DNA of 56,692 bases, counting the filler, from Ionaspis alba (taxonomy: Eukaryota), in assembly GCA_964255285.1 (NCBI GenBank). It is 3 parts of 3 records of this genome, joined end to end, with 100 filler letters (N's around TTAATTAATTAA, not from the genome) between each part and the next. Parts side by side here need not be neighbours in the genome. Positions count along the whole stretch, not along the records: positions 1 to 18,848 come from CAXUUL010000277.1; 2 more parts are not named here. One strand, 5' to 3'. Shown here in pieces: positions 5,209 through 56,549 of this stretch (position 1 is its first letter; each line of letters begins with the position of its first letter). The notes beneath the pieces were generated by a model. It searched no databases, was not told the origin of the DNA, and saw only the letters and a list, made by a program, of their open reading frames with translations. A program made the position numbers and the translations under genes.

Positions 5209-5948
5209 ATGGCAAGTACTGAAGAACGCGTGAGTCGTTTTCGACATTGCATGCTCCAGCCATCGACAGCAGGAATATCGAATCCGTTTACATTGAAGCT
5301 AACCGCATACATTTTTGGGTTGGATAGTCCGAAGATGGATCCCAGCTTCCTGAGTTCGGCGACAGTATCGACGCCATGACCTTTGAACAAATCCTCGAGA
5401 TGGACGATGACGAGGAAGAGCGGGAATTCTCCCGCAGTATCGTCTTCGGCTTCTTCGATCAAGCCGAGCAGACGTTCAAGAATATGGAGGAGAGTTTGTA
5501 AGCAACTTTCTCATGTTCGCACCGTCGCGCAAATCCACAAGCGTCCATCGCCCTGCGTACATGTCCTGACTTCCCTTTTGGCAATCTCGCCTGGTAGCCC
5601 TCACCATTGTCCTTCGTTATCTCATCTGGCTACACCTTGTTAGTTACAATACTTCTCAAGACCCTATCTTCTAACCAGCACTCTAGGGCGGCCCGCGACC
5701 TCAAAAACCTCAGCGCATTAGGGCACTTCCTTAAAGGGTCCTCTGCAACACTCGGTCTAACAAAAGTTAAGGACAGCTGCGAGCGCATCCAGCACTTCGG
5801 CTCACACAAAGACGAAAGCGGCACTGTGGACGTGCCGGACGATACTCTTTGCCTGGAGCGGATTCAAGAGACGTTGGCGGCTGTCAAGGTGGAGTACGCA
5901 GAGGTGGAGAAGAAGCTGCGGGCGTTTTATCATGATAGTGGATCGTGA
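5209..5948 (+). CDS. YPD1: Histidine-containing phosphotransfer (HPt) protein Ypd1
   Basis: Spliced product contains TFEQILEMDDDEEEREFSRSIVFGFFDQAEQTF and LGHFLKGSSATLGLTKVKDSCERIQHFG (phospho-acceptor His motif). Two introns. Confidence 0.95.
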
Positions 5949-6870
5949 AGAGCGGGAAGAGGGGGGACGGAAAATTAGAGGAAGGTGAAGATACAGGATT
6001 TGATGCCGGGTGCATGCTCGGCCCACGTGCTGCTGCGAGCTTTTGAGTGCCTTCACAGCTCTCTCTACCCCTATGCTTTGATAGCTAAGCCTAATGAGTA
6101 TGCTTGGTTGGTGATAGATAGTCAGATTGAAGTTGTCTTAATAACTTGAAAGCCTCCCCCTACGGATGAAAAAGGAAGAACTTATTCGTTGACAGCCGCA
6201 GCTGCCTAGAGGAGAAGGAAATACAAGGAGCTAAAATTGGCTGCGTATAGCGAGCTAAACGTTTCTACTCCTATTTCGCAGCACAAAATCTGACTTTCGA
6301 CCACTCCTGGGAGTTCGCAAGCCCGGGGATGAGGGGTGGAGAGGTGCCTGGGCCTCTTCTTGTGGAGGTCCAATCTTCTTCTCCTTGAACATATTGCTCA
6401 ATTGCGGCAACCCAATGCGGTGTGGGATCCGACGTAGAAGGTGCCTCGATTGTGACGTGGTTTCTTCCAGTGGTAATTGCAGAATGCCAATAAGTATGCA
6501 TTTGAGACGCTTAACGTACAACTCGTGATGTATGACCGTAAAAGCAGTCCGAGTAAACAACATTTTGCACGGGCATATGGTCGATCTTAACATTTAGTTC
6601 AATTTTCTTAAAACTGTAGACATTATCTTGATGAAATCATTAGAGATCCTGGCAACTTAGTGAATGAATGCCAGTGTTGATACTGAACTTTCAATTCTGT
6701 TAGATGGAACAGCGCTTCGGAGACATGAAGGGACTTGTGAGCTTTGATAGCATGTTGTTCGCGGGCTGAGAGACGGGCCATTTATTCAGAAATCTATGTT
6801 GTGCGATTTAATGACATAGACATAGTCGTAAGATATATTTGTAAAAGGCCGACCTTGTGGTTAAAATGGT

Positions 6871-7004
6871 GGCTGGATAGTTCAGTGGCAGAAGTGAGTT
6901 AACGGCAAATCTCACTACACTATTCCTACTAATCAGTATTCAGTTCTTGCTTTGGGCTCACTCCAATCTGTAAGAGGTCCTGGGTTCAAATCCCAGTTCA
7001 GCCC
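6871..7004 (+). tRNA. tRNA-Pro(UGG) with a canonical 12-nt intron (6957-6968) and an extra 50-nt insertion in the D arm (6894-6943)
   Basis: Removing both inserts gives a full cloverleaf: acceptor GGCTGGA/TTCAGCC plus C73, D stem GTTC/GAAT, anticodon stem CTTGC/GTAAG with loop TT-TGG-GT, T arm CTGGG-TTCAAAT-CCCAG. A T-run Pol III terminator follows at about 7009. Confidence 0.92.
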
Positions 7005-8216
7005 TTGCTTTTTTGTTTTTTCCCCTTTCTTTTCTTTCATTTATAGACCTGCATTCAAAAATCAGGTAGTCAGATAACAATTAGATACCTACACATTTAT
7101 TAGACAATTAGCAAGCAAGCGCAATTGCACCATTCTTATGTCCAGCTCGATTTTTGGTGACCTTTAGTTCTGTCCAGATTAGGTGGATATTACCCTGAGA
7201 TTACAGCGGCATGATTCAGCCTTGGGTTGATGGAACCCGCATGCTCCTCGGGTCTCAATGATTGCAGCGTTTGCCCAAATGAAAGCCTCCACAAATATAA
7301 TTTAATTTTGTGATCTCCTTCCGGGTATCATCTCTGCGCCGCTATCTCATCTCCTGTGAAAGAGAAGGGAAGAAGGGGGAAACCCCAAGCAGGATAGAAC
7401 CGTAAGTATCTCTCTACCCTTTGGATTCAATGTTGGCACCAATCAACGAGCATATAGGGAAAAGCGGCCAGCAACCATGTAAGGAAATACTTGACAATGG
7501 AGCAGGTATATGTCAGGCTGGTGGAAAAGGATTGGGGACATGATGGAGGAGAGGTTTGGGATGCAGAAAGAGAAGAGGGAGACCGCTTCCATGGCAGGGC
7601 ATCGAAAAGATTGAACGTTTAAAGAATGGCTGGCGAAAGGCCAATGCCCGGACTGTCAGGTTGTCAGTCGTTGTCTTACCCTAACTTCGCTTGAGCGCTA
7701 GATAGTTTGAGTCAATACTATATGGTTCTGCGAATGTCTCCGGTGACCACCGCCAGTAGAGATCAATGACCCGGAGGTTGACAGAATTTCGCTGCCAATG
7801 CGGCATCTCAATAACGGGCAGTTCCATCAAATTGACTGCCTAAGCCCGGTCTGAGTTAGTCAAAATTAGGGGTTAGTTTACTTGGGGCTCCCGTTAGGTG
7901 TCCCACCAATTTTCTCCGAAGCCAAGAGCCTCAAGGCTAATTCTGCCGCTACTCCTTTGAGTAGCACAATTTAGAAATAGAAGACAGTCATGCGCAGCTG
8001 TTGGATCTATCTTTCATCAGAATCTGGGAAGACAATTACTTTCTCGGAAACTCTTGCTACAGACCTAGGGACTAAGTCCGGCGGTCTGCCGCATGCGCTG
8101 ATGAAGACCACCTGATGGTCAGCATTAAATGATCTGATCTCGACACCGTCCTGTCCTTTCCTCCCTGAAGCTCTAAAGGCTGGATCACAGCTACTCCGAC
8201 TGCTCAAGTCTCAGTC

Positions 8217-9318
8217 ATGCACGGCCACCTTCCCCCTCGCAAAGTATCACATCCTTCGGCATACAATCGCAGCCCGCGGCTATCATCGTACCAGAAAAGG
8301 AGGTTGAAGTTTTGGAGTCTGACAGCGCTGGTGATCGCGACGTTCTTCTATCTTTCTTCGAGGCTCTTTAGATCCTCGCCCACGCCTTCCCTGTTACCAA
8401 AATCTTCGATTCCTTCAGGATCCCCTGAGGTGGTCATAGTCACGGTGCTTGACCCTGATTTGCGGAAAGAATATGTCGCGAAGATCAAAGAGAATAGGGA
8501 GGACTACGCTAAAAGATTCGGTGTGTTTATTGGACCGTGCCCCGGTCACGATACTTGCTTGATGCTAATTTGTGGGAGTTGAAAGGCTACAAAAACTTCT
8601 ATGCAAATGCCTCCGACTATGAAGTCGGACCTTCTGCCCCAAGGTCTTGGGCACTCATCCCCGCTCTTCGACATGCCATGGCCCAAAACCCATACTCCAC
8701 ATACTTCTTCTCACTATCTCCACACTCCCTTATCATGAATCCCTCGCTGTCCTTGATAGACCATATCATGGGTCCGAAGAAGCTGGAATCACTCATGCTC
8801 AAGGACAAGCCTGTCGTTCCACCAGACAGCGTCATCCATACCTTTTCGCACTTGAAGGGCGATAAGATAGATCTGGTCTTAACGCAAGATGGAGAAGGGC
8901 TCTGTCAGGAAAGCTTCATTGTCCGTCAGAGCGAGTGGTCCAAATTTTTTCTAGACAGCTGGTTCGATCCTTTGTACCGGTCTTATAACTTCCAGAAAGC
9001 GGAGGGGCATGCGTTGGTTAGTACTCCTGAGATGATTTCCCATTGAAGTTCGGAAGGTAGAACTGACGCACTTCGAAATTGCAGGAACACTTGGTCCAAT
9101 GGCATCCTACCATATTGACCAAGCTTGCTCTGATCCCACAAAGGATAATGAACTCGTACACGGTCGAAATTGAAAGTAGAGGTGGGAAACAAGTGACCTA
9201 TCAACGAGGCGATTTCGTGGTTCGAGCTGTTGGGTGCGAAAAAGGACAGAACCGAAACTGCGAGAAGGAAATGGATCCTTGGTATGCGGATTGGAAGGGT
9301 GCCCAGAGCTCTGGATAG
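8217..9318 (+). CDS. MNN11: Golgi alpha-1,6-mannosyltransferase complex subunit, Mnn11-like (GT34 family)
   Basis: N-terminal LPPRK motif, one TM anchor, then IKENREDYAK, LMLKDKPVVPPDSVIHT, WFDPLYRSYNFQKAE-HALEHLVQWHPTILTKLALIPQR. Two introns. Confidence 0.85.
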
Positions 9319-12007: not shown

Positions 12008-13811
12008 TCAAGCCTTATAGAGCGTATCCAAGAACCCACCGGCCAATTGCACAACAATGCTTTTATCAGGTAACAACCCAGCCCCATAAAGCGCAGCGGT
12101 CTTTCCCCCTGCCGCTCCCTTCTTCCCTTTCCCTTCCGCAACTCTCACCCTCTCCTTCTCCCTCTCATCCTCTACCGCCGCCACCAAATCCGCAATCAAC
12201 CTCTCCAAAGCCCCCACAATCGGCAGCGTGAAGGCGACGTGAATAGCGGGTGGGTTCTGCAACGCATTGAGATGCCACCCCCTACTCTCCATACCGTCCA
12301 CCAGATCGTACACATTCAGTGTGCTGGACGTGAACGCCACAACGCTGACAAGCGGCTTGCCAATGACGCTGAGATCAGGCGCTAAAGCCGGGTGCTCGTG
12401 AATTGCGGCTTCGAACGTCTTTGCTGCACCGACAATCTTGTGGCATGCATCCACGTACCCACTCTCACCCTGCGCCATCAACGACGCCCAGCAGCCGGCA
12501 ATGAGAGCACCTGGTCGAGAGCCGGCCATGCTTGGGGACGCGTAGACGCCCCCGGACCAGTCCGGGGAGATAAAGTATTGGTAAGTGCGGAGGGCGGCTG
12601 TGCGATACAGAACAGTCGAGTTACCCTTGGGTGCAAACCCGTATTTGTGCGTATCGCAGCTGATGCTCGTGACACCTTTGAGTGTAAAATCGAAGGGTGT
12701 GGTTTCGAAGCCGGCGCGGGCCAGGAAGGGGACCAGGAAGGAGCCGAGGCAGCAGTCGACGTGGAGGGGGAGGGATTTTTTGAGAGCGAGGCGGGAGAGG
12801 CACGGGATGTCGTCGATTATGCCGTGGGGAAAGTTAGGGGCGGAGCCGACTAGGAGGATTGTGTTGCTATTAATGAGGCGCGAGATGGAGGGGAGGTGGG
12901 CCCGGTAGGTGGGGCCGGGACAGGAGACGAGATGGGTTTTGATTTTGAAGTAGGCGCCGGCTTTGCGGAAGGCGGTGTGAGCTGTTTCGGGGAGGATCCT
13001 GTGACGGATTAGGGAGAAGTCGAGAGCGAAGAAGAAGGGGAGGACTTACATCTCAGGCTCTGTAACACCACGTTCAGCGTAAGCTTTTTGCCTTGCGCTG
13101 AGGCATGCCATAAGAATTGACTCGGTGCCTCCACTGGTAGTAACACCAGCAGCTCCTGGTGGTGCGTTGAACATGGCAAGAACCATAGCCACTATCTCAG
13201 CTTCCATCTTCCGTACTCCAGGAAAGACATCAGGATGAATTGGATTTGCAACCATGAACTTCTTGAAGGCGTCGGATTGCAGATTTATCAGATCTCCACC
13301 ACCATGATAGACCGCTCCGCTCACCAATCCGTCTTCCCACCTCGTATGCTCCATCTCACCCAGCTTCTCCAGTTCTGCGTTCACTTGCTTGTCGGACCAT
13401 CCTTCCTTTGGTAAATTCAGATACCGACTGACTCCAGGACCTTTGGGAACGAGTTTTGCTTCAAGCTTGACGATCGACTCTTGGACTTGTTTCTGAACCT
13501 TTGGACGCACACCAGGAGCTCGAAGGAACAAGCCATAAAGTATTCGACGGATGGCGGAGTATGCATCGATAGTGGTCCCGAAAACGCCTCGACCTTTCAG
13601 CTGGAGAGCTGCTTTTCGTGTCCATCGTAAGAGGAAAAGGAAGAAAACGATATTTCGCAGCCTACAATGGTCAATGGCCGTTGCTGATAACGGACATGGT
13701 TGACGGAGCTCACAGATCCACATTCAATAGTGCTAGATAGGTCCGCCTCGAAGTTGCCTTCTGGGATGTGAGCCCATTCTTGAGGCTAATAGCCAGACTT
13801 GAGGAACCCAT
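12008..13811 (-). CDS. DPL1: Sphingosine/sphinganine-1-phosphate lyase (PLP-dependent)
   Basis: WEDGLVSGAVYHGG, NPIHPDVFPGVRKMEAEIVAM, TSGGTESILMACLSAR, SISCDTHKYGFAPKG, GSRPGALIAGCWA, GWHLNALQNPPAIH. Two introns. Confidence 0.96.
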
Positions 13812-16802: not shown

Positions 16803-18436
16803 ATGCAGCAACGCAAGAAAGTCGCTATAGTGGGCAGTGGCTGCTCTGGAATTGGTGCACTATGGGCCTTGAAGAGCACAGATCATGAAGTTCATCTTTA
16901 TGAGGCTAATAACCGCCTTGGAGGACATACGAACACTGTCACATTCGAGTATAATGGCAAGAAGACGAATGTCGATACTGGCTTTATCGTTATGAATTCT
17001 GCTACCTACCGTTCGAAGGCCCCTATGTCAATTCTATCACACCAAGGCTTACTTCTACGGTAGCCAATTTTATCGCTTTCCTCAAAGAAGTCAATGTTCC
17101 AACAGTCCCTACGGACATGACATTTGGCGTTTCTCGGGATCAGGGACTCTTTGAATGGGCTGGTACATCACTGTCTGCCGTATTTGCACAGAAATCAAAT
17201 CTTCTTTCTGCCAGAGTATGGCAAATGTTATTCGACATTGTCCGTTTCAACCAATTTGCTCTAGACCTGCTTTCAGATGCAGAAGAGAGCGAGGACGACC
17301 CAAGTGGTGCTCGTGGTACCAGCTCTGACTTCCACAAGCCACGGTGTCAAGAGAGTATAGGAGACTATCTTGAACGTGAGGGCTACTCCGAAGCATTTCG
17401 AGACGACTACTTGATTCCTATGACGGCGGCTGTTTGGAGTACAAGCCCTGATAAATGCTCATTGGACTTCCCTGCTGTCACTTTGGTCCGCTTCATGTGG
17501 AACCATCATCTTCTTACTACAGTCAGCGCTCGGCCGACGTGGATGACCATTAGAGACGGATCGCAGCAATACATAGACGCTGTCATGGCCGACTTTCCTT
17601 CAGAACAGGTTCATCTTGCAACAAAGGTCAGGACTTTGACTTTCGAGGAAGACGGCATGATTGCACTTCATCGCCAAGACTGGAGCGTCGACATGTACGA
17701 TCATGTCATCTTGGCCACCCACGGCGACCAGGCAATGGATATCATCCGCGATGTCGCTACAGAAGAGGAGTCTGGCATTATGTCAGCTTTTCAGACGAGC
17801 AAGAATTTAGCAGTCCTACACTCAGATCTATCGGTGTGTTCGCATTAAGTTTGCTGAACGTACCATCACTGATTTCTCCAGCTTATGCCTAAACGACACA
17901 TCGCATGGTCTGCGTGGAATTATATCACAGCCTCTTCCTCGTCCGGCAATTCAGTCTCCTCAGTCTGTCTGACATACTGGATGAATCTTCTACAGCACAT
18001 CCGGACGAGTACTTTCGGCCATGTCTTAGTGACTCTGAACCCGCTCCATTCGCCCAACCCAGAACTCATCCAAGGATCGTGGACTTATCACCATCCTCTC
18101 TACAATGCTGCTGCGATTAGATCCCAATCGCTGCTACCTCGAATACAGAACACACGTGGCATTAGCTACGCAGGTGCGTGGACTAAGTATGGCTTCCATG
18201 AAGATGGATTCTCGAGCGGTGTCAAGGTGGCTATTGAGCACCTGGGCGCTAAAATTCCATTCGACTTTGTGGACAGCACCTTTTCTAGAGGGAGACGACC
18301 GGTCTTAGGTCGGCGAGATTATGCTGTTCGAATATTTGTATATCTGGTACAACTGATTGTACTCATTCTACGCGCAGGTATAGGGAGGATAACGGGAGGA
18401 TTGAAAGGGCAGGAGGCTCGACGTAAGATCCAATAA
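16803..18436 (+). CDS. FAD-dependent oxidoreductase, amine-oxidase-like (COG2907-type) family
   Basis: KVAIVGSGCSG Rossmann motif, EANNRLGGHTNT, VDTGFIVMNSATYPNF, AVLHSDLSLMPKR...AWSAWNY, GAWTKYGFHEDGFSSG. Two introns. Confidence 0.9.
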
Positions 18437-38235: not shown

Positions 38236-38335
38236 GCCTTCGGGCATTTGGTCAATTTGAAACGATACAGAGAAGATTAGCATGGCCCCTGCACTAAGGA
38301 TGACACGCTTCACAAAGAGACGCTACTCAATTTTT
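38236..38335 (+). ncRNA. SNR6: U6 spliceosomal snRNA
   Basis: 5' hairpin GCC-TTCG-GGC, CATTTGGTCAATTTGAAAC, ACAGAGA box, AGC triad, internal stem-loop ATGGCCCCTGCACTAAGGATGAC, ACAAAGAGA and a T10 terminator. Confidence 0.97.
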
Positions 38336-39151: not shown

Positions 39152-41746
39152 ATGTCTGCGAAGCCCAAAAATGTCATGAGGCAGCCAACCCAACGAGCTC
39201 CACGGGCTAGATTAGACAGTATCAAAAATCCTCAGCCTCGACCAGTTCCTCAAGCTACTCGGCCGGCCAAGGCGCAGCTGCGCAGACCTGCTGTGCCTAC
39301 TTGTACGAACAAGACCTGTCCGAAGAGTGACGTCGATGAAGATGATGGCAAACTTGTGTGCAAAACCTGCGGTGTCGTCATCTCCGATATCCAAATCATT
39401 CAAGAAATCACTTTCGGGGAGTCTTCTAATGGAGCCGCTGTGGTACAAGGAGCCTATGTTGGTGCGAACGAGGAACACGCCCGGAACAGTGCATTGGGCA
39501 ATTCGAAACTGACCGGTGGCACCGACAGTAGAGAAGTTACTTTGAGGAATGGTAAGTCAAGTCTTAATGCTCTCCATCTCGAGGTAAGTCCCGTGGTTAA
39601 TCCATTTGGGCAGGGAAAATGGCAATCCAGCGAATTGCGAACGGGGTATCATCACTTGACGGACTAAATCTGACCACTACCCACCATGATCGAGCGTTGT
39701 CTGTCTACACGCTCGCCATAGGTGTCAATTTCATTCAAGGACGAGAAATTGATCACGTTGCCGCGGCCTGTCTGTACATTGCTTGTCGACGAGACCCCGA
39801 GAACAGGGTAATGCTGATTGACTTCTCTGATACCCTGAAGGTGTGTATCTCTATATTGCTCCACTTTATAGCCACTGACTTTGTGTTAGGTCGACGTCTT
39901 CAAACTTGGGCACACTTACAATTCACTTGTCCAGGAGCTTGGTCTCAGGAAAGGGGAGGGCATGGCGGGGATCGGCGAGATTAATCCGGAGCATCTCATT
40001 TATCGCTTCGCCGGTCAGCTGGATTTTGGAGACGACTACATCCGTGTTGCGAACGAAGCTGCGAAGATCCTGCAACGAATGCGACGTGACTGGATGGCTC
40101 ATGGACGTCGTCCTTCCGGTGTTTGCGGAGCTGCGCTAATTCTGGCGGCTCGTATGAACAACTATCGTCGGACGGTCCGGGAGGTTGTCTACATTGCCAA
40201 AGTTACTGACCTCACTATCAATAAGCGCCTAGAGGAATTCAAGTATACGCAGAGTAGCGCACTCACTGTCGCTGAGTTTCGCAACCATGGGCTACAATCA
40301 GGACAAGAGTGCGACCCGCCAGCTTACTATCGACAATTCTTACCAAAAAAGAAGAGGAAGCTCAAGAAGAACGAAGGAACTGCAGCCGAAGAAATCTCTG
40401 ATTCAGATTCTGAACGTGCAAACTCCAATGACCCCTCGAATGATGATGACGATGATGAAAACACCACGCCCACTCAACAAGCCCAGAGAGACAGCCAGGC
40501 AATGCCCCCACCACCTATTCCGATCGATCCCGCATTACATGAAGTATCAGCACAGCGTCTTTCGGAACTCGAGTCATCGAACCAGATTCATGACGAAGCT
40601 TCTGGTGAAGGAAGTTCGGAAGTTCAGCTGCCTCGCAAATCTGGTCGACCTCCAGGATCGAAGAACAAGCCTTTGCCAACTCCCACTGCGTCCCAGATCG
40701 AGGACGAAGACGCAATAGAATCCGATATAGACTCATATTTACAAGATCCTGCTACCGTTGCTCATGCGACAGAACTGCATAATGCTCTAAACGTCACAAG
40801 GCCGCTCTCCCCACCCTCCACCCAAGGGAAACTAGGTCCAAGGAATGATGCCACTCACGAAGCTGACAATCCTCTGGACTCAACCGAGCCAAATTCACCT
40901 CCAGCTACACAACGGACTGAAGCCCTGGCCAGCACCCAGACAAGACCTGTCATTCCAGACACCGAGATTATACCCGAAGAGGAATTTGCTGGTGACCCAG
41001 AAATCGACAACTGCCTTCTCACAGACGCAGAGATCAAGATCAAAGAGCGCATTTGGGTGCACGAGAATGGCGATTACCTTCGAGCTCAGCAAGCTAGACT
41101 AATCAAGCAACAACTCGCAGAGGCCAACGGGACAGCACGAGTCATTGTAAGGAGAAAAAGGAAGAGAGGCAGAATGGGTGATGTGAGTAAGTATCAGACC
41201 GTCAACGAGGATGGACAAGTCGTCGGACCATCGACTCCTGAAGAAGCTGTCGCAGCCATGATGAAGAAGCGGGGCTACAGTAGGAAGATTAATTACCAGG
41301 CTATCAAACATCATTTTGCTTCGAGCACTGCTAGTCAGAGCCGAGCTACGAGCACAAGAGACAGCGTTGTGGGCGATGGTGATGAGGAGCAGGAGAGCAG
41401 GGCGCCGACGCCCTTGGTTACAGTCACATCACCAACGCCACCAACAGCCGGAGCAGAGAAAGCGGCATCGGCTCCGAAGCCAGACAAACCCTCCGTGCAC
41501 AAGGATAGAGACGCAATTGTGGTCGACGACGTTGAAGAGGACGAGGATGCAGCTGGCCCTGTACCCGAGACGCGAAGAACTTTTGGAACCGTCGACCCTG
41601 ATGCTGTTTCCGTGGTGAATGATAATAACAACAACGATGAGCTGATGGCTCTTGCCCGCGAAGCGCAAGAAGGAACCGGAAGCGGAGAGGACGACTACCT
41701 CGAAGAGGAATATGAGGACCCACCCCCCGAGGAAGAAGACGATTGA
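39152..41746 (+). CDS. BRF1: TFIIIB subunit Brf1
   Basis: Zinc ribbon (CTNKTC...VCKTCGVV), EITFGESSNGAAVVQG, cyclin folds (VAAACLYIACRR; QRMRRDWMAHGRRPSGVCGAALILAARMNN), C-terminal EIKIKERIWVHEN and SRKINY. Two introns. Confidence 0.96.
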
Positions 41747-45192: not shown

Positions 45193-45467
45193 CCCGGGCG
45201 CATATCAGAGTCAGGTCAAAGGGTTTCGACTTTCCCAAACGAATAACCCCGGCGCATATCAGAGTCAGGTCAAAGGGTTAGCAGCCACCGATCAATAAAA
45301 CCCCGGCGCATTTCGGAGTCAGGTCAAAGGGTTCGAATCCACCGCAAGGAACAACAATATAGCCCCGGCGCATTTCGGAGTCAGGTCAAAGGGCTCGAAA
45401 CCACCGCACCGAACAATTATAGCCCCGGCGCATATCGGAGTCAGGTCAAAGGGCTCGAAACCACCGC
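45193..45467. repeat. Five-copy tandem array with a 31-nt core (CCC[C/G]GGCGCAT[A/T]TC[A/G]GAGTCAGGTCAAAGGG) and variable 23-31 nt linkers
   Basis: Cores start at 45193, 45247, 45301, 45363 and 45423, giving periods of 54, 54, 62 and 60 nt. Confidence 0.95.
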
Positions 45468-48100: not shown

Positions 48101-49459
48101 CTAGAGCGCACTTCCGCTCACGACAGCAGACTTTTTGCGCTCCTCGAATATCGTCTGAGCTTCCCAAAGCTCGTGCTTCAAGTCCTCACCCCAAATCCAG
48201 TCCCAAGCATGACTTAAATAACCAAGAACACCTTCAATACTCTCTCCAAATTTCTCGTCTTCCAAGTCATACACCTTAGCAGTATGGTTGCTGGAAGTCA
48301 CCAGCCGCTGCGTCCTCGGTCTCCGCACTTGGTCGTACGCCGCAAAGGCATTCACCAAGTCCTTCACATCATCAACCGAAGCTAGCAACCGAGACAGGAT
48401 GAACGCATCCTCCACTGCCATGCCAGCACCTGCACCATGGTGAGGAGTGCTTGCGTGGGCAGCATCGCCGAGCAGACAGATCTTGCCCTTTCGATAATAC
48501 GTTGAAGCTGGGGGCGCCTCAAAAAGTGCCCAGACATCTGGGTCGTCCATCAAGGCGAGCATTTTTGTGACCTGTTGGTTCCAGCCTTCGTAATCCTCAA
48601 GCATTTCTGCCCTCGTCACATGCTTGACCCACTTCGGGTCCTCCCATTTACCATCAGCTTTGGAGTGAGATGCGGCCACGTTCATGACGCTCCCGTGCTC
48701 AATCGGCATGGTCAGCACATGGCCATGCTTACCCACATCTACTTCCAATTAGTCATGACGCGGAGATCAGCAGGAAAGAGCCAACTCACACATCTGAGTG
48801 TTCATGGCAAACTCTTCTCCGACCAAGTCCTTAGCCTTCTCCATCGGCACCAATCCACGATAGCAATAACTTCCGGAAAAGACCGCCGCGCTTGCCGGGT
48901 TGTCTTCTCCTAGCAAGATCTTTCGCACTCGGCTCTTGATTCCATCACATCCGATGGCTGCATCGTGCCTAGCAGTCGTGCCATCCGCGAACTTGAGCAA
49001 GACGCCCTCGCCCTCTTCGTCAATGCCCTCCAACCTCTTCCCAAAACTCGCCATCTCCTTCGGTACCAGTTTGACCATCTCCTCGAGAAATCGCGCCCTG
49101 TGCACACTCGACATACCCGTCTCGGACGTCAATTCAAGCATACTTTGCGCAGGTTGGTATCCTTCGGGACTGGTGGTTCCCATTCCCCAGCGGAAGTCAA
49201 AGACAGTACGCAATTTCGAGCTCCACCCATTTGTCGTTTCGCAGTGCTTGTATGCGGCCAAAATGTTGGGATCTAGCAGCGCCATGGCTTTTAGCGAGTT
49301 GGTGCCGAAGCCCACACCAGCGCCGACTTCGGTAAAGGCGTGCGCAGCTTCGTAGATGTGGCAGGGGATCTTGAGGTCGTGCAGGGTGATTGCGAGACAG
49401 ATACCACCAATGCCGCCACCGATTACGGCAAGTGAGAAGGGTTTCTGTTCAGGGGCCAT
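48101..49459 (-). CDS. FAD-dependent monooxygenase, salicylate hydroxylase-like
   Basis: VIGGGIGG, IYEAAHAFTEVGAGV, SVHRARFL, IGCDGIKSRVR, LLGDAAHASTPHHGAGAGMAVEDA. One intron. Confidence 0.93.
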
Positions 49460-54962: not shown

Positions 54963-56549
54963 ATGATGGAATACTTCAACTTCAAGAAGGCCAAGCACCA
55001 CACGGAGACAGCAGAGAAGGTCGAGACGCCCGTTCTCAATGACGAAGATGAAGCTTTCCTCACAAGAATCACAACCGAGGGGGAGCCACCTCCACTACCT
55101 GCCAGACCATTGAATCTACCGCAGGCGGGTAGTACAAAAGGGAATGACGCGCAGATAGCATTGATGGCTGGCGCTGACAACGTACCACTACCCGATGTCC
55201 CAGATACTCCTGAGGGTGTTATGCCAGGAGTCGGAAGTGAAGACATGGAGAAGGGTAAAGGCAAAGAAGCTTCCTCGAAGGCACCCTTCAAGTGGAGTTT
55301 CTTGCGGCGCGATAGCAGAGACAGCAAGCGCAAAGCCGCCGCGGCCACAGCGACTGATCTAGACAGCATCGCCCAAGGGCTCAAAGCTCCAGATGCAAAG
55401 GTGAACGAGGATGGCGCTGTCACACCTCACGAAGCGAACAAGGAGGAGGAGGAGATGACCATTGTCCTTGATCAATTGAACCTTGCCGCCGTCAACAACC
55501 GCGTCTTCTCAATCTCGAAAGAGTCCCAAGAACTCCTTAGGAAGTACGTCACTCTATAGACCCACGTGCATGTTGGTTTACTCACAATTTCCCAATAGAT
55601 TCACCCTCGTCCTCAAAGATCTCGTCAACGGCGTTCCAACCGCTTACGACGACCTCGAATCCCTTCTCACAAACTCCGAGCATCAAATCCAAAAATCATA
55701 CCACGCCCTTCCATCCTTCCTTCAAAAACTCATCGAACAAGTCCCCACTAAGCTAACCGGCTCGTTCGGTCCCGAAATCCTAGCCGCAGCTGCAGAACGC
55801 CAAGGTCTCAAGTCCGAGTACCTGAACACAGCCACAGGCATGGCATCAAAGCTCGGCCTGAAAGCCCGAGTGCCGAGTCTGAAGGACCTGGTTACAAAGC
55901 CAGGTGCCGTAGCCAGCATGCTCAAGACGATCATGAACTTCCTGAAGACAAGATTCCCGGCCTTTATGGGCATGAATGTGTTGTGGTCGCTGGCACTATT
56001 CCGTAAGCAGTCCGCTCTGTTCCTCGACGCGTGGCTAAATACTAACGCCGAAACATAGTCCTTCTCTTCGTATTTTGGTACTGCCACAAACGCGGTCGCG
56101 AAGTCCGTCTCGAGAAAGAGCGTCTATTGACCGAAGCCGAGATCGCCCAGCTCGACAAAGAGGTCGCCGAAGACCCTGCGCTGCAAACCACCGCCGGGCC
56201 CACAACCACCGCCCCTGAGGGCGCGTCCATGGAGGAAGTGCAGGCAGGCATGAAAGCAGCAGCTGCCGCGGCCGCGGAGGAAAAGGAAGCAGCCCCCAAG
56301 GACGGCGGGGCAAGATACGCACCTGGTGGATCGTTGGCGAAGGACCAGGCGGCGAAAGAGAAGAAGGCCGCTGAGGAGAAGAAGGCTGCCGAGGAGAAGC
56401 AAGCTGACGAGGACAAGAAAGCTGAGGAGGCTAAAGTGGAAGAGACGAAAGCAGAGGACAAATCAGAGGCTAAGATCCCTGAGCCCTCGAAAGAGCAGAT
56501 ATCACAAGTGCCTGAGGCTGGTGAGCCGGCTTCCGACCATGTTGCGTAG
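54963..56549 (+). CDS. Fungal hypothetical protein with one TM segment and a charged C-terminal tail
   Basis: MEYFNFKK...PVLNDEDEAFL, LDQLNLAAVNNRVFSISKES|FTLVLKDLVNGVPTAYDDLESLL, FPAFMGMNVLWSLALF|LLFVFWYCHKRGREVRLEKE. Two introns. Confidence 0.85.

Follow-up and report, generated by a model that had tools for sequence, protein, structure and literature searches.

The present study concerns a tRNA-Pro(UGG) gene at positions 6871-7004 (+ strand, 134 nt) of a 56,692-nt stretch of DNA from the Ionaspis alba assembly GCA_964255285.1 (the whole stretch is hereafter called the window). The gene holds two introns of different kinds, namely a short intron at the canonical place between tRNA positions 37 and 38 and a 50-nt insert with the signals of a spliceosomal intron within the D arm. 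The existence of this insert-bearing gene, which had been described in an initial annotation of the window, is confirmed. Based on the conserved signals presented below, the D-arm insert is probably removed by the spliceosome, and the locus is likely to represent a functional nuclear tRNA-Pro(UGG) gene of a lichen-forming, Lecanoromycete-like fungus, whose transcript would mature through both the spliceosome and the tRNA-splicing endonuclease (SEN). The reading put forward in the initial annotation, that both systems would be used, is thus well supported.

Gene structure and in silico excision of the D-arm insert

Standard searches did not recover the gene in its interrupted form. Without its intron option, ARAGORN detected no tRNA in the whole window, and with that option it wrongly reported the locus to be a tRNA-Val(aac) whose intron is 51 nt long. 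The Rfam tRNA model gave no match in the window at its gathering score and none over 6700-7200 at E<=10. Once the letters of the D-arm insert were deleted, the ARAGORN call became a clean tRNA-Pro(tgg) of 72 nt, in which the D stem pairs as GTTC/GAAT and a 12-nt intron is recognized. These outcomes bear out the initial annotation in several respects. It had described an insert of 50 nt at 6894-6943 with GTGAGT, TACTAAT at 6927-6933 and a TTCAG end, with which the sequence agrees exactly; it had claimed exact borders and a D stem restored upon removal, otherwise intact arms and a normal 12-nt intron at 37/38, and all three are found in the ARAGORN call after deletion, the short intron also in the helix test reported below; and it had expected standard finders to miss or mis-score the gene and had suggested running one before and after the deletion, upon which the call indeed switches to Pro(tgg). 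Its statement that the insert lies past the A box and lacks a run of four T also holds, as the A-box-like stretch is entirely in exon 1 and the longest T run in the insert is 2. With respect to tRNAscan-SE 2.0, the description in PMC8450103, as far as its available portion goes, has the search for non-canonical introns applied to candidates from the archaeal search model.

The two introns differ in class. The 12-nt intron has both the position and the helix between anticodon region and intron that characterize canonical tRNA introns at 37/38, whereas the D-arm insert at 24/25 does not belong to that class. Instead, the insert has the make-up of a U2-type GT-AG intron, with a GTRNGT-like 5' site carrying G at +5, a YTRAY branch motif, a YAG end and a host-like length, and the gene around it has the organization of an RNA polymerase III (Pol III) type-2 gene, with an internal A-box-like stretch, a B box and a T-run terminator. 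Exact removal of the insert in silico leads to the form of a functional product, and the joined form is present as DNA in a public contig (X2, see below).

Regarding host-like length and signals, five mRNA introns of the window itself were available for comparison, accepted either by a strict open reading frame (ORF) fusion screen (four) or by homology of the BRF1 gene (one). They are 48-56 nt long, start with GTRNGY and carry a CTRAY-type motif whose A lies 9-13 nt from the end (Table 1). In this comparison with host mRNA introns, made for the window locus, the tRNA insert (50 nt; GTGAGT; TACTAAT at 11; CAG) fell in the middle of the class, in line with the earlier claim that it matches the size and signals of the mRNA introns of the window.

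Table 1. Features of the tRNA-Pro(UGG) gene (window positions), mRNA introns of the window, and interruptions of the related tRNA-Pro(UGG) gene at locus L021
Feature	Position	Strand	Length (nt)	Remarks
Exon 1	6871-6893	+	23	tRNA positions 1-24: acceptor 5' strand, D stem 5' strand, D loop, three first bases of D stem 3' strand
A-box-like stretch	6878-6888	+		wholly within exon 1
D-arm insert, spliceosomal-type (GT-AG)	6894-6943	+	50	between tRNA positions 24/25
5' splice-site hexamer GTGAGT	6894-6899	+		read from sequence
Branch-site-like TACTAAT	6927-6933	+		presumed branch A at 6932, 11 nt before last intron base
3' splice site CAG	6941-6943	+		insert end reads TTCAG
Exon 2	6944-6956	+	13	last D-stem base, position 26, anticodon stem 5' strand, loop to position 37
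Anticodon TGG	6953-6955	+		in exon 2
Canonical tRNA intron at 37/38	6957-6968	+	12	presumed SEN substrate; ARAGORN intron call
Exon 3	6969-7004	+	36	positions 38-73: anticodon stem 3' strand, variable loop, T arm, acceptor 3' strand, discriminator C
B box GGTTCAAATCC	6983-6993	+		in exon 3
Pol III terminator-like T6-G-T6	7009-7021	+		read from sequence
mRNA intron	12999-13049		51	ORF fusion; GTAAGT; CCCTAAT at 10
mRNA intron	17834-17881		48	ORF fusion; GTGTGT; CACTGAT at 9
mRNA intron	39841-39889		49	BRF1 homology; GTGTGT; CACTGAC, A 11 nt from end; TAG
mRNA intron	48739-48789		51	ORF fusion; GTGAGT; GACTAAT at 10
mRNA intron	56003-56058		56	ORF fusion; GTAAGC; TACTAAC at 13
L021 24/25 insert			48	GTAGGT; GTCTAAT; TAG
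L021 37/38 intron			14	
L021 T-arm insert			49	between positions 53/54 (T loop); GTAAGT; TTAAT; CAG

Conservation of splice signals and exons among related loci

A metagenome scan with a pattern of exon letters on both sides of the insert, in which GT and AG were forced and a free gap of 30-60 was allowed (insert of 34-64 nt), yielded 26 further loci, all of them tRNA-Pro(UGG) genes with an insert at 24/25, and the same pattern gave 0 matches in a prokaryote genome collection. Together with the window, these loci hold 19 distinct inserts of 47-55 nt and were assigned to about 11 lineages, defined by flank similarity only. The 37/38 intron of the related loci is 11-15 nt long and variable in sequence. 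The exons are conserved also where the pattern left them free, as T at position 34 and a 15-letter stretch of exon 3 were found in 27/27 genes. The 23 letters of exon 1 are identical in 22/27 genes, and the remaining five (L001, L002, L018, L021 and L022 among them) differ by compensated acceptor-stem changes or at the N of the D loop. Compensatory acceptor-stem changes occur in L001/L018, L002 and L021, and such compensated stems point to working tRNAs. In addition, all 27 genes have a stretch of four or more T that begins 0-8 nt past the discriminator.

Removal of the D-arm insert alone led ARAGORN to call Pro(tgg) in 22 of the 27 genes (the window and 26 loci). In L010, L020, L024 and L026, another anticodon was called after removal, with ARAGORN placing the short intron elsewhere and the exon-2 letters being the same, and in L021 the call needed the removal of both of its inserts. 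Other interrupted tRNAs were looked for in the window and the 26 loci, and ARAGORN with introns found tRNA-Pro genes only. A generic screen, in which each of 436 GT..YTNAY..YAG candidates was deleted and ARAGORN rerun, likewise returned the same tRNA-Pro genes only, L021 slipping past this one-deletion screen because two removals are needed.

The signals within the inserts were evaluated with 5000 shuffles per lineage, and the chance products given here assume independent lineages, which is not proven. On this basis, G at +5, which the pattern left unforced, in 11/11 lineages has a product of chance probabilities of 1.9e-10; Y at -3, likewise unforced and with about 0.5 expected per lineage, in 11/11 lineages has a product of 7.5e-4; and a strict YTRAY motif, also unforced, whose branch A is 9-13 nt away from the insert end, occurs in 10/11 lineages vs a frequency of 0.045-0.09 per lineage in the shuffles and has a product of 1.4e-12. 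T at +6 was observed in 9/11 lineages. Within-group alignments, which could be made for four alignable groups, revealed variation in 5/56 signal columns vs 54/156 other columns (Fisher one-sided p=9.1e-5), and the changes in signal columns remain within the consensus. Between lineages, the insert interiors have a median pairwise identity of 0.54, which is about the level of unrelated AT-rich sequences, and are not alignably conserved, and the folding energies of the inserts are unexceptional (z -2.4 to +2.35). A loss of the GT, branch or AG signals in orthologous inserts, which the initial annotation had said would tell against its reading, is not what the 19 distinct inserts display, since their signals are kept while their interiors diverge. 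Taken together, these patterns indicate that the splice signals are under selection and that the resemblance to an mRNA intron exceeds chance.

Public sequencing runs matching 5500-8500 were looked up, and none of RNA was listed. Variation within the locus itself was examined in two public contig runs from one study, X1 (0.95 of words) and X2 (0.47), compared over 6500-7400. X1 holds two forms of the locus with depths of about 60 and 28 (roughly 2:1). The minor form has 9 base changes and 1 deletion in the insert and 1 base change in the 37/38 intron, with zero changes in the exons, GTGAGT, TACTAAT or CAG. The chance for 10 changes to miss the 14-16 signal places is 0.013-0.025, and that for all 11 changes to be intronic is 1.2e-4. 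Two of the changes disrupt GTGAG/CTCAC, the sole hairpin of the insert. The two forms also differ in their flanks, and their summed depths equal that of the unique flanks, which suggests haplotypes or strains more than paralogues. As a separate observation over 6753-7146, about 20% of the insert positions differ between the X1 forms vs 4/121 bases at 7026-7146, and an indel or replaced stretch lies at 6801-6861; the introns are thus much more variable than the flanks, which would fit a raised mutation rate of tRNA genes. Such a raised rate has been reported for highly transcribed tRNA genes.

In X2, an 87-nt contig passes from 6893 without a break into 13 letters that match 6944-6956 exactly, after which a 37/38 intron of 16 nt, unlike that of the window, precedes 6969-6997. 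This contig is an insert-less tRNA-Pro(UGG), which may be an orthologue, a paralogue or a gene of another fungus of the sample, and given its junction, the borders of the insert are exactly GT...AG.

For the taxonomic placement of the window, the BRF1 gene at 39152-41746 (+) was compared, with Xylographa species as the closest named relatives (55-57% identity), followed by Lambiella and Trapelia (51-57% overall); the named matches listed are all lichen-forming fungi or lichen-derived metagenome-assembled genomes. The Rfam matches to Afu_309 and U6 (see below) had pointed to a filamentous ascomycete, and an Aspergillus origin, which the Afu_309 match had brought up, was rejected in view of these BRF1 relatives. 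Xylographa belongs to Lecanoromycetes, and the window lineage is Lecanoromycete-like, as well as poorly sampled, because the best other BRF1 matches reach only 75% identity. The flanks of the window resemble those of L026, and an upstream divergent ORF is common to the window, L026, L006, L001 and L018, so at least these represent one orthologous locus. Sequence comparison of the L001 flank gave no named relatives. Regarding the distribution of loci over assemblies, JAABUP, for example, contains L002, L010, L023 and L025, and JAABUK contains L004, L007, L016 and L021; the several flank groups per assembly would reflect either many carrier fungi occurring together or several interrupted tRNA-Pro(UGG) copies per genome.

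The L021 gene (1921-2084, - strand of the locus, contig JAABUK010004448.1) has three interruptions, with a second spliceosomal-type insert in the T arm (Table 1). For the Obg-type GTPase gene adjoining it, identity is highest with Endocarpon pusillum (85%) and falls to 62-66% for the next matches, from Chaetothyriales; as Endocarpon belongs to Verrucariales in the class Eurotiomycetes, L021 is Verrucariales-like. Since two fungal classes carry the 24/25 intron, it would either predate the split of the two classes or have been gained more than once at one site, and the T-arm insert indicates that such introns arose at more than one place in tRNAs. With respect to introner-like elements, which have near-identical copies at many sites of a genome, the 56.7-kb window and the 26 loci were searched, and neither the insert of the window nor the two inserts of L021 had a further copy there. 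On balance, the evidence tips slightly towards these being the first nuclear tRNA genes with spliceosome-dependent maturation, in which an old 24/25 intron, common to Lecanoromycete-like and Verrucariales-like fungi (two Pezizomycotina classes), would have been kept by selection on its splice signals, with new cases still arising, as in the T-loop intron of L021.

Two further details of the related loci were noted. The T-arm insert of L021 splits the B box, and its final AG together with exon 3 is still B-box-like with one mismatch. In L022 (contig Ga0209772_10018464), a stretch resembling the first ~18 nt of exon 1 (acceptor 5' strand and A-box-like part) lies ~10-35 nt upstream of the tRNA and may be the remnant of a partial tandem duplication.

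Proposed maturation pathway and alternative explanations

In the proposed pathway, Pol III would use the internal A and B boxes to transcribe the complete gene as far as the T run, giving a precursor of about 145 nt, and the spliceosome would recognize GUGAGU, UACUAAU and CAG, take the 50-nt D-arm intron out as a lariat and join position 24 to 25. The D stem and the L-shaped body could form only after this removal, and SEN and tRNA ligase, measuring from the mature body, would presumably then excise the 12-nt intron at 37/38. In budding yeast, the cytoplasm is the site of SEN action, and such a location would impose the same order, with the D-arm intron removed first. T runs are rare in the inserts, with runs of four or more in 1/19 vs 5.8 expected and runs of five or more in 0 vs 1.9 expected, and this avoidance, together with the terminators, is suggestive of read-through by Pol III.

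Several points weigh against this pathway. An earlier CAG in the insert of the window (6934-6936) lies just 4 nt past branch A, and the inserts of group A have AAG 3 nt before CAG. L001 and L018 carry G or A at +6, which is off-consensus, and L010/L020 have CTTAC instead of YTRAY at the same place. The scan pattern forced GT, AG and parts of the exons, so that inserts with other ends and diverged tRNAs were invisible to it, and several flank groups share metagenome assemblies, so that some may be paralogues and the lineages not fully independent. The insert-less tRNA-Pro(UGG) in X2 implies that some genomes may have redundant copies. Moreover, efficient spliceosomal splicing is normally coupled to transcription by RNA polymerase II (Pol II).

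This last point, that recruitment of the spliceosome is normally Pol II-coupled, is in favor of an alternative in which the spliceosome acts on a longer non-coding precursor made by Pol II, from which RNase P and RNase Z would cut the tRNA out, the Pol III signals not being the drivers. AT-rich, TATA-like stretches ~25-38 nt upstream in most lineages could serve either polymerase. Nevertheless, a Pol II precursor appears unlikely, as it is at odds with the stretches of four or more T that follow the 3' end by 0-8 nt in 27/27 genes, the intact A- and B-box stretches and the avoidance of T runs by the inserts; furthermore, the flanks vary by lineage group while the intron stays in the tRNA, and no conserved host transcript is apparent. 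Even less probable is that the insert represents a non-canonical tRNA intron cut by SEN and ligase or by another protein endonuclease, with its likeness to mRNA introns being incidental. Non-canonical nuclear tRNA introns, including those in the D and T regions, are described for some algae in the available text of PMC13578239, and a 4-bp helix in a register like that of the bulge-helix-bulge (BHB) motif is possible in 5/20 distinct genes when a 4-bp central helix is accepted at any of 16 offset combinations. However, the central helix is absent in 15/20 genes, including that of the window, three of the five positives come from one lineage, and shuffled inserts give a helix in the BHB register in 379/4000 cases. 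The short 37/38 intron served as a positive control, and in 20/20 of these genes its 3' part forms a 4-bp helix with the end of exon 2. Given 20/20 vs 5/20 helices, the short intron resembles a usual substrate of the endonuclease, whereas the D-arm insert does not. The structure of the insert is also not conserved, with the GTGAG/CTCAC hairpin broken in the X1 variant and the folding z unexceptional, and an endonuclease would leave the conserved G at +5, the YTRAY spacing and Y at -3 unexplained. Excision by SEN alone, which the initial annotation had raised as the opposing case, thus finds no conserved BHB at the D-arm insert.

The remaining alternative is that of a dead gene, or of an insert that is never removed, in which a tRNA pseudogene or tRNA-derived repeat would be accompanied by intact paralogues supplying tRNA-Pro(UGG), as the insert-less copy in X2 would allow. 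This explanation is very improbable. The exons are conserved while both introns diverge, and the acceptor stems have compensatory changes, both of which contradict the pseudogene alternative named in the initial annotation; moreover, terminators are present in 27/27 genes, the splice signals are constrained, no extra copies of the insert occur in the window or the loci, and gene conversion by intact paralogues would erase the insert. The clean ARAGORN calls after removal likewise disagree with a pseudogene or tRNA-derived repeat. In addition to these three explanations, a self-splicing group I or II intron was considered and rejected, given inserts of only 47-55 nt, the lack of a match to any Rfam family and folding z values of -2.4 to +2.35.

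Window context, known intron systems and implications

Elsewhere in the window, an uninterrupted U6 small nuclear RNA (snRNA) gene was identified at 38236-38334 (+; Rfam 90.1 bits, model positions 1-105), ~800 nt upstream of the BRF1 gene, which encodes the TFIIIB subunit needed by Pol III for U6 and tRNA genes. A full-length Rfam match to Afu_309, a small RNA of Aspergillus fumigatus, at 14-316 (+; 178.7 bits) extends the conservation of this RNA to a Lecanoromycete-like fungus. Finally, at ~45215-45345 (+), a B-box-like motif at 45327 is located in a ~60-nt direct repeat, whose unit, ending ...GGTCAAAGGGTT, occurs twice within 150 nt; ARAGORN found no tRNA there.

Among known systems, spliceosomal introns are present in fungal U6 genes, e.g., that of Schizosaccharomyces pombe (Tani and Ohshima 1989/1991; Canzler et al. 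2016, as cited in the accessible part of PMC5855946). These resemble the present case in being short introns of genes with Pol III signals, with a canonical 5' site, branch and 3' site, otherwise unconserved, and with several per gene possible. Unlike U6, the tRNA is not a part of the spliceosome and its intron shares a transcript with a SEN-type intron; reverse splicing into a neighboring catalytic RNA, the argument from the proximity of U6, therefore does not explain the origin of the intron. Spliceosomal introns also occur in the nuclear ribosomal DNA (rDNA) of lichen-forming ascomycetes (Bhattacharya et al. 2000, via the portions of PMC5855946 and PMC8527467 available), and a 57-bp rDNA intron of this kind from Cladonia grayi was correctly removed from Pol I transcripts in yeast, according to the excerpted text of PMC8527467. 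The lichen rDNA introns share with the tRNA insert their occurrence in lichen-forming Pezizomycotina, their short GT-AG form and their ectopic position in a structured RNA not normally made by Pol II, but they reside in Pol I genes, whereas the first two exons of the tRNA gene are tiny (23 and 13 nt) and an intron of the endonuclease type has to be removed as well. The U6 introns and the lichen rDNA intron spliced in yeast are thus precedents for spliceosomal action on RNAs other than those made by Pol II.

The other class of comparison comprises the BHB introns in tRNAs of Archaea, Cyanidioschyzon merolae, Chondrus crispus and nucleomorphs (PMC13578239 and PMC3978253, in their accessible sections). 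Like the inserts described here, they occupy sites in the D arm and T loop, may number several per gene and are missed by standard eukaryotic finders; they are, however, defined by a BHB cut by the splicing endonuclease, whereas here the BHB test fails and spliceosomal signals are conserved. Reviews treat three separate nuclear intron types and place non-canonical, BHB-like nuclear tRNA introns in a few algae (available parts of PMC12530127 and PMC13578239). The non-coding hosts of spliceosomal introns listed in the accessible part of PMC5855946 are U6, U2, U5 and U1 snRNAs and ribosomal RNA (rRNA), with no tRNA in that list. Full-text literature searches, which do not extend to subscription journals, turned up no paper on a tRNA gene with a spliceosomal intron. 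The tRNA-Pro(UGG) insert would accordingly place a spliceosomal-type intron in a new class of host, the tRNA.

If the proposed maturation holds true, it would break the textbook rule that assigns spliceosomal introns to Pol II transcripts, along with a small number of snRNAs and rRNA, and introns of the endonuclease type to tRNAs. The gene may also offer a compact natural substrate for studying the spliceosome on a short, uncapped and structured Pol III transcript and the order in which two splicing systems act, and it bears on intron gain, as a tRNA is not a spliceosome component. For annotation, tRNA-Pro(UGG) or other tRNAs may appear to be missing from the tRNA sets reported for lichen-forming fungi and their relatives, because ARAGORN and Rfam miss or misname these interrupted genes. 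Together with the known introns of lichen rDNA, this would mean that lichen-forming fungi use their mRNA splicing machinery to process core components of translation, both rRNA and a tRNA, and their translational capacity would be tied to the availability of the spliceosome.

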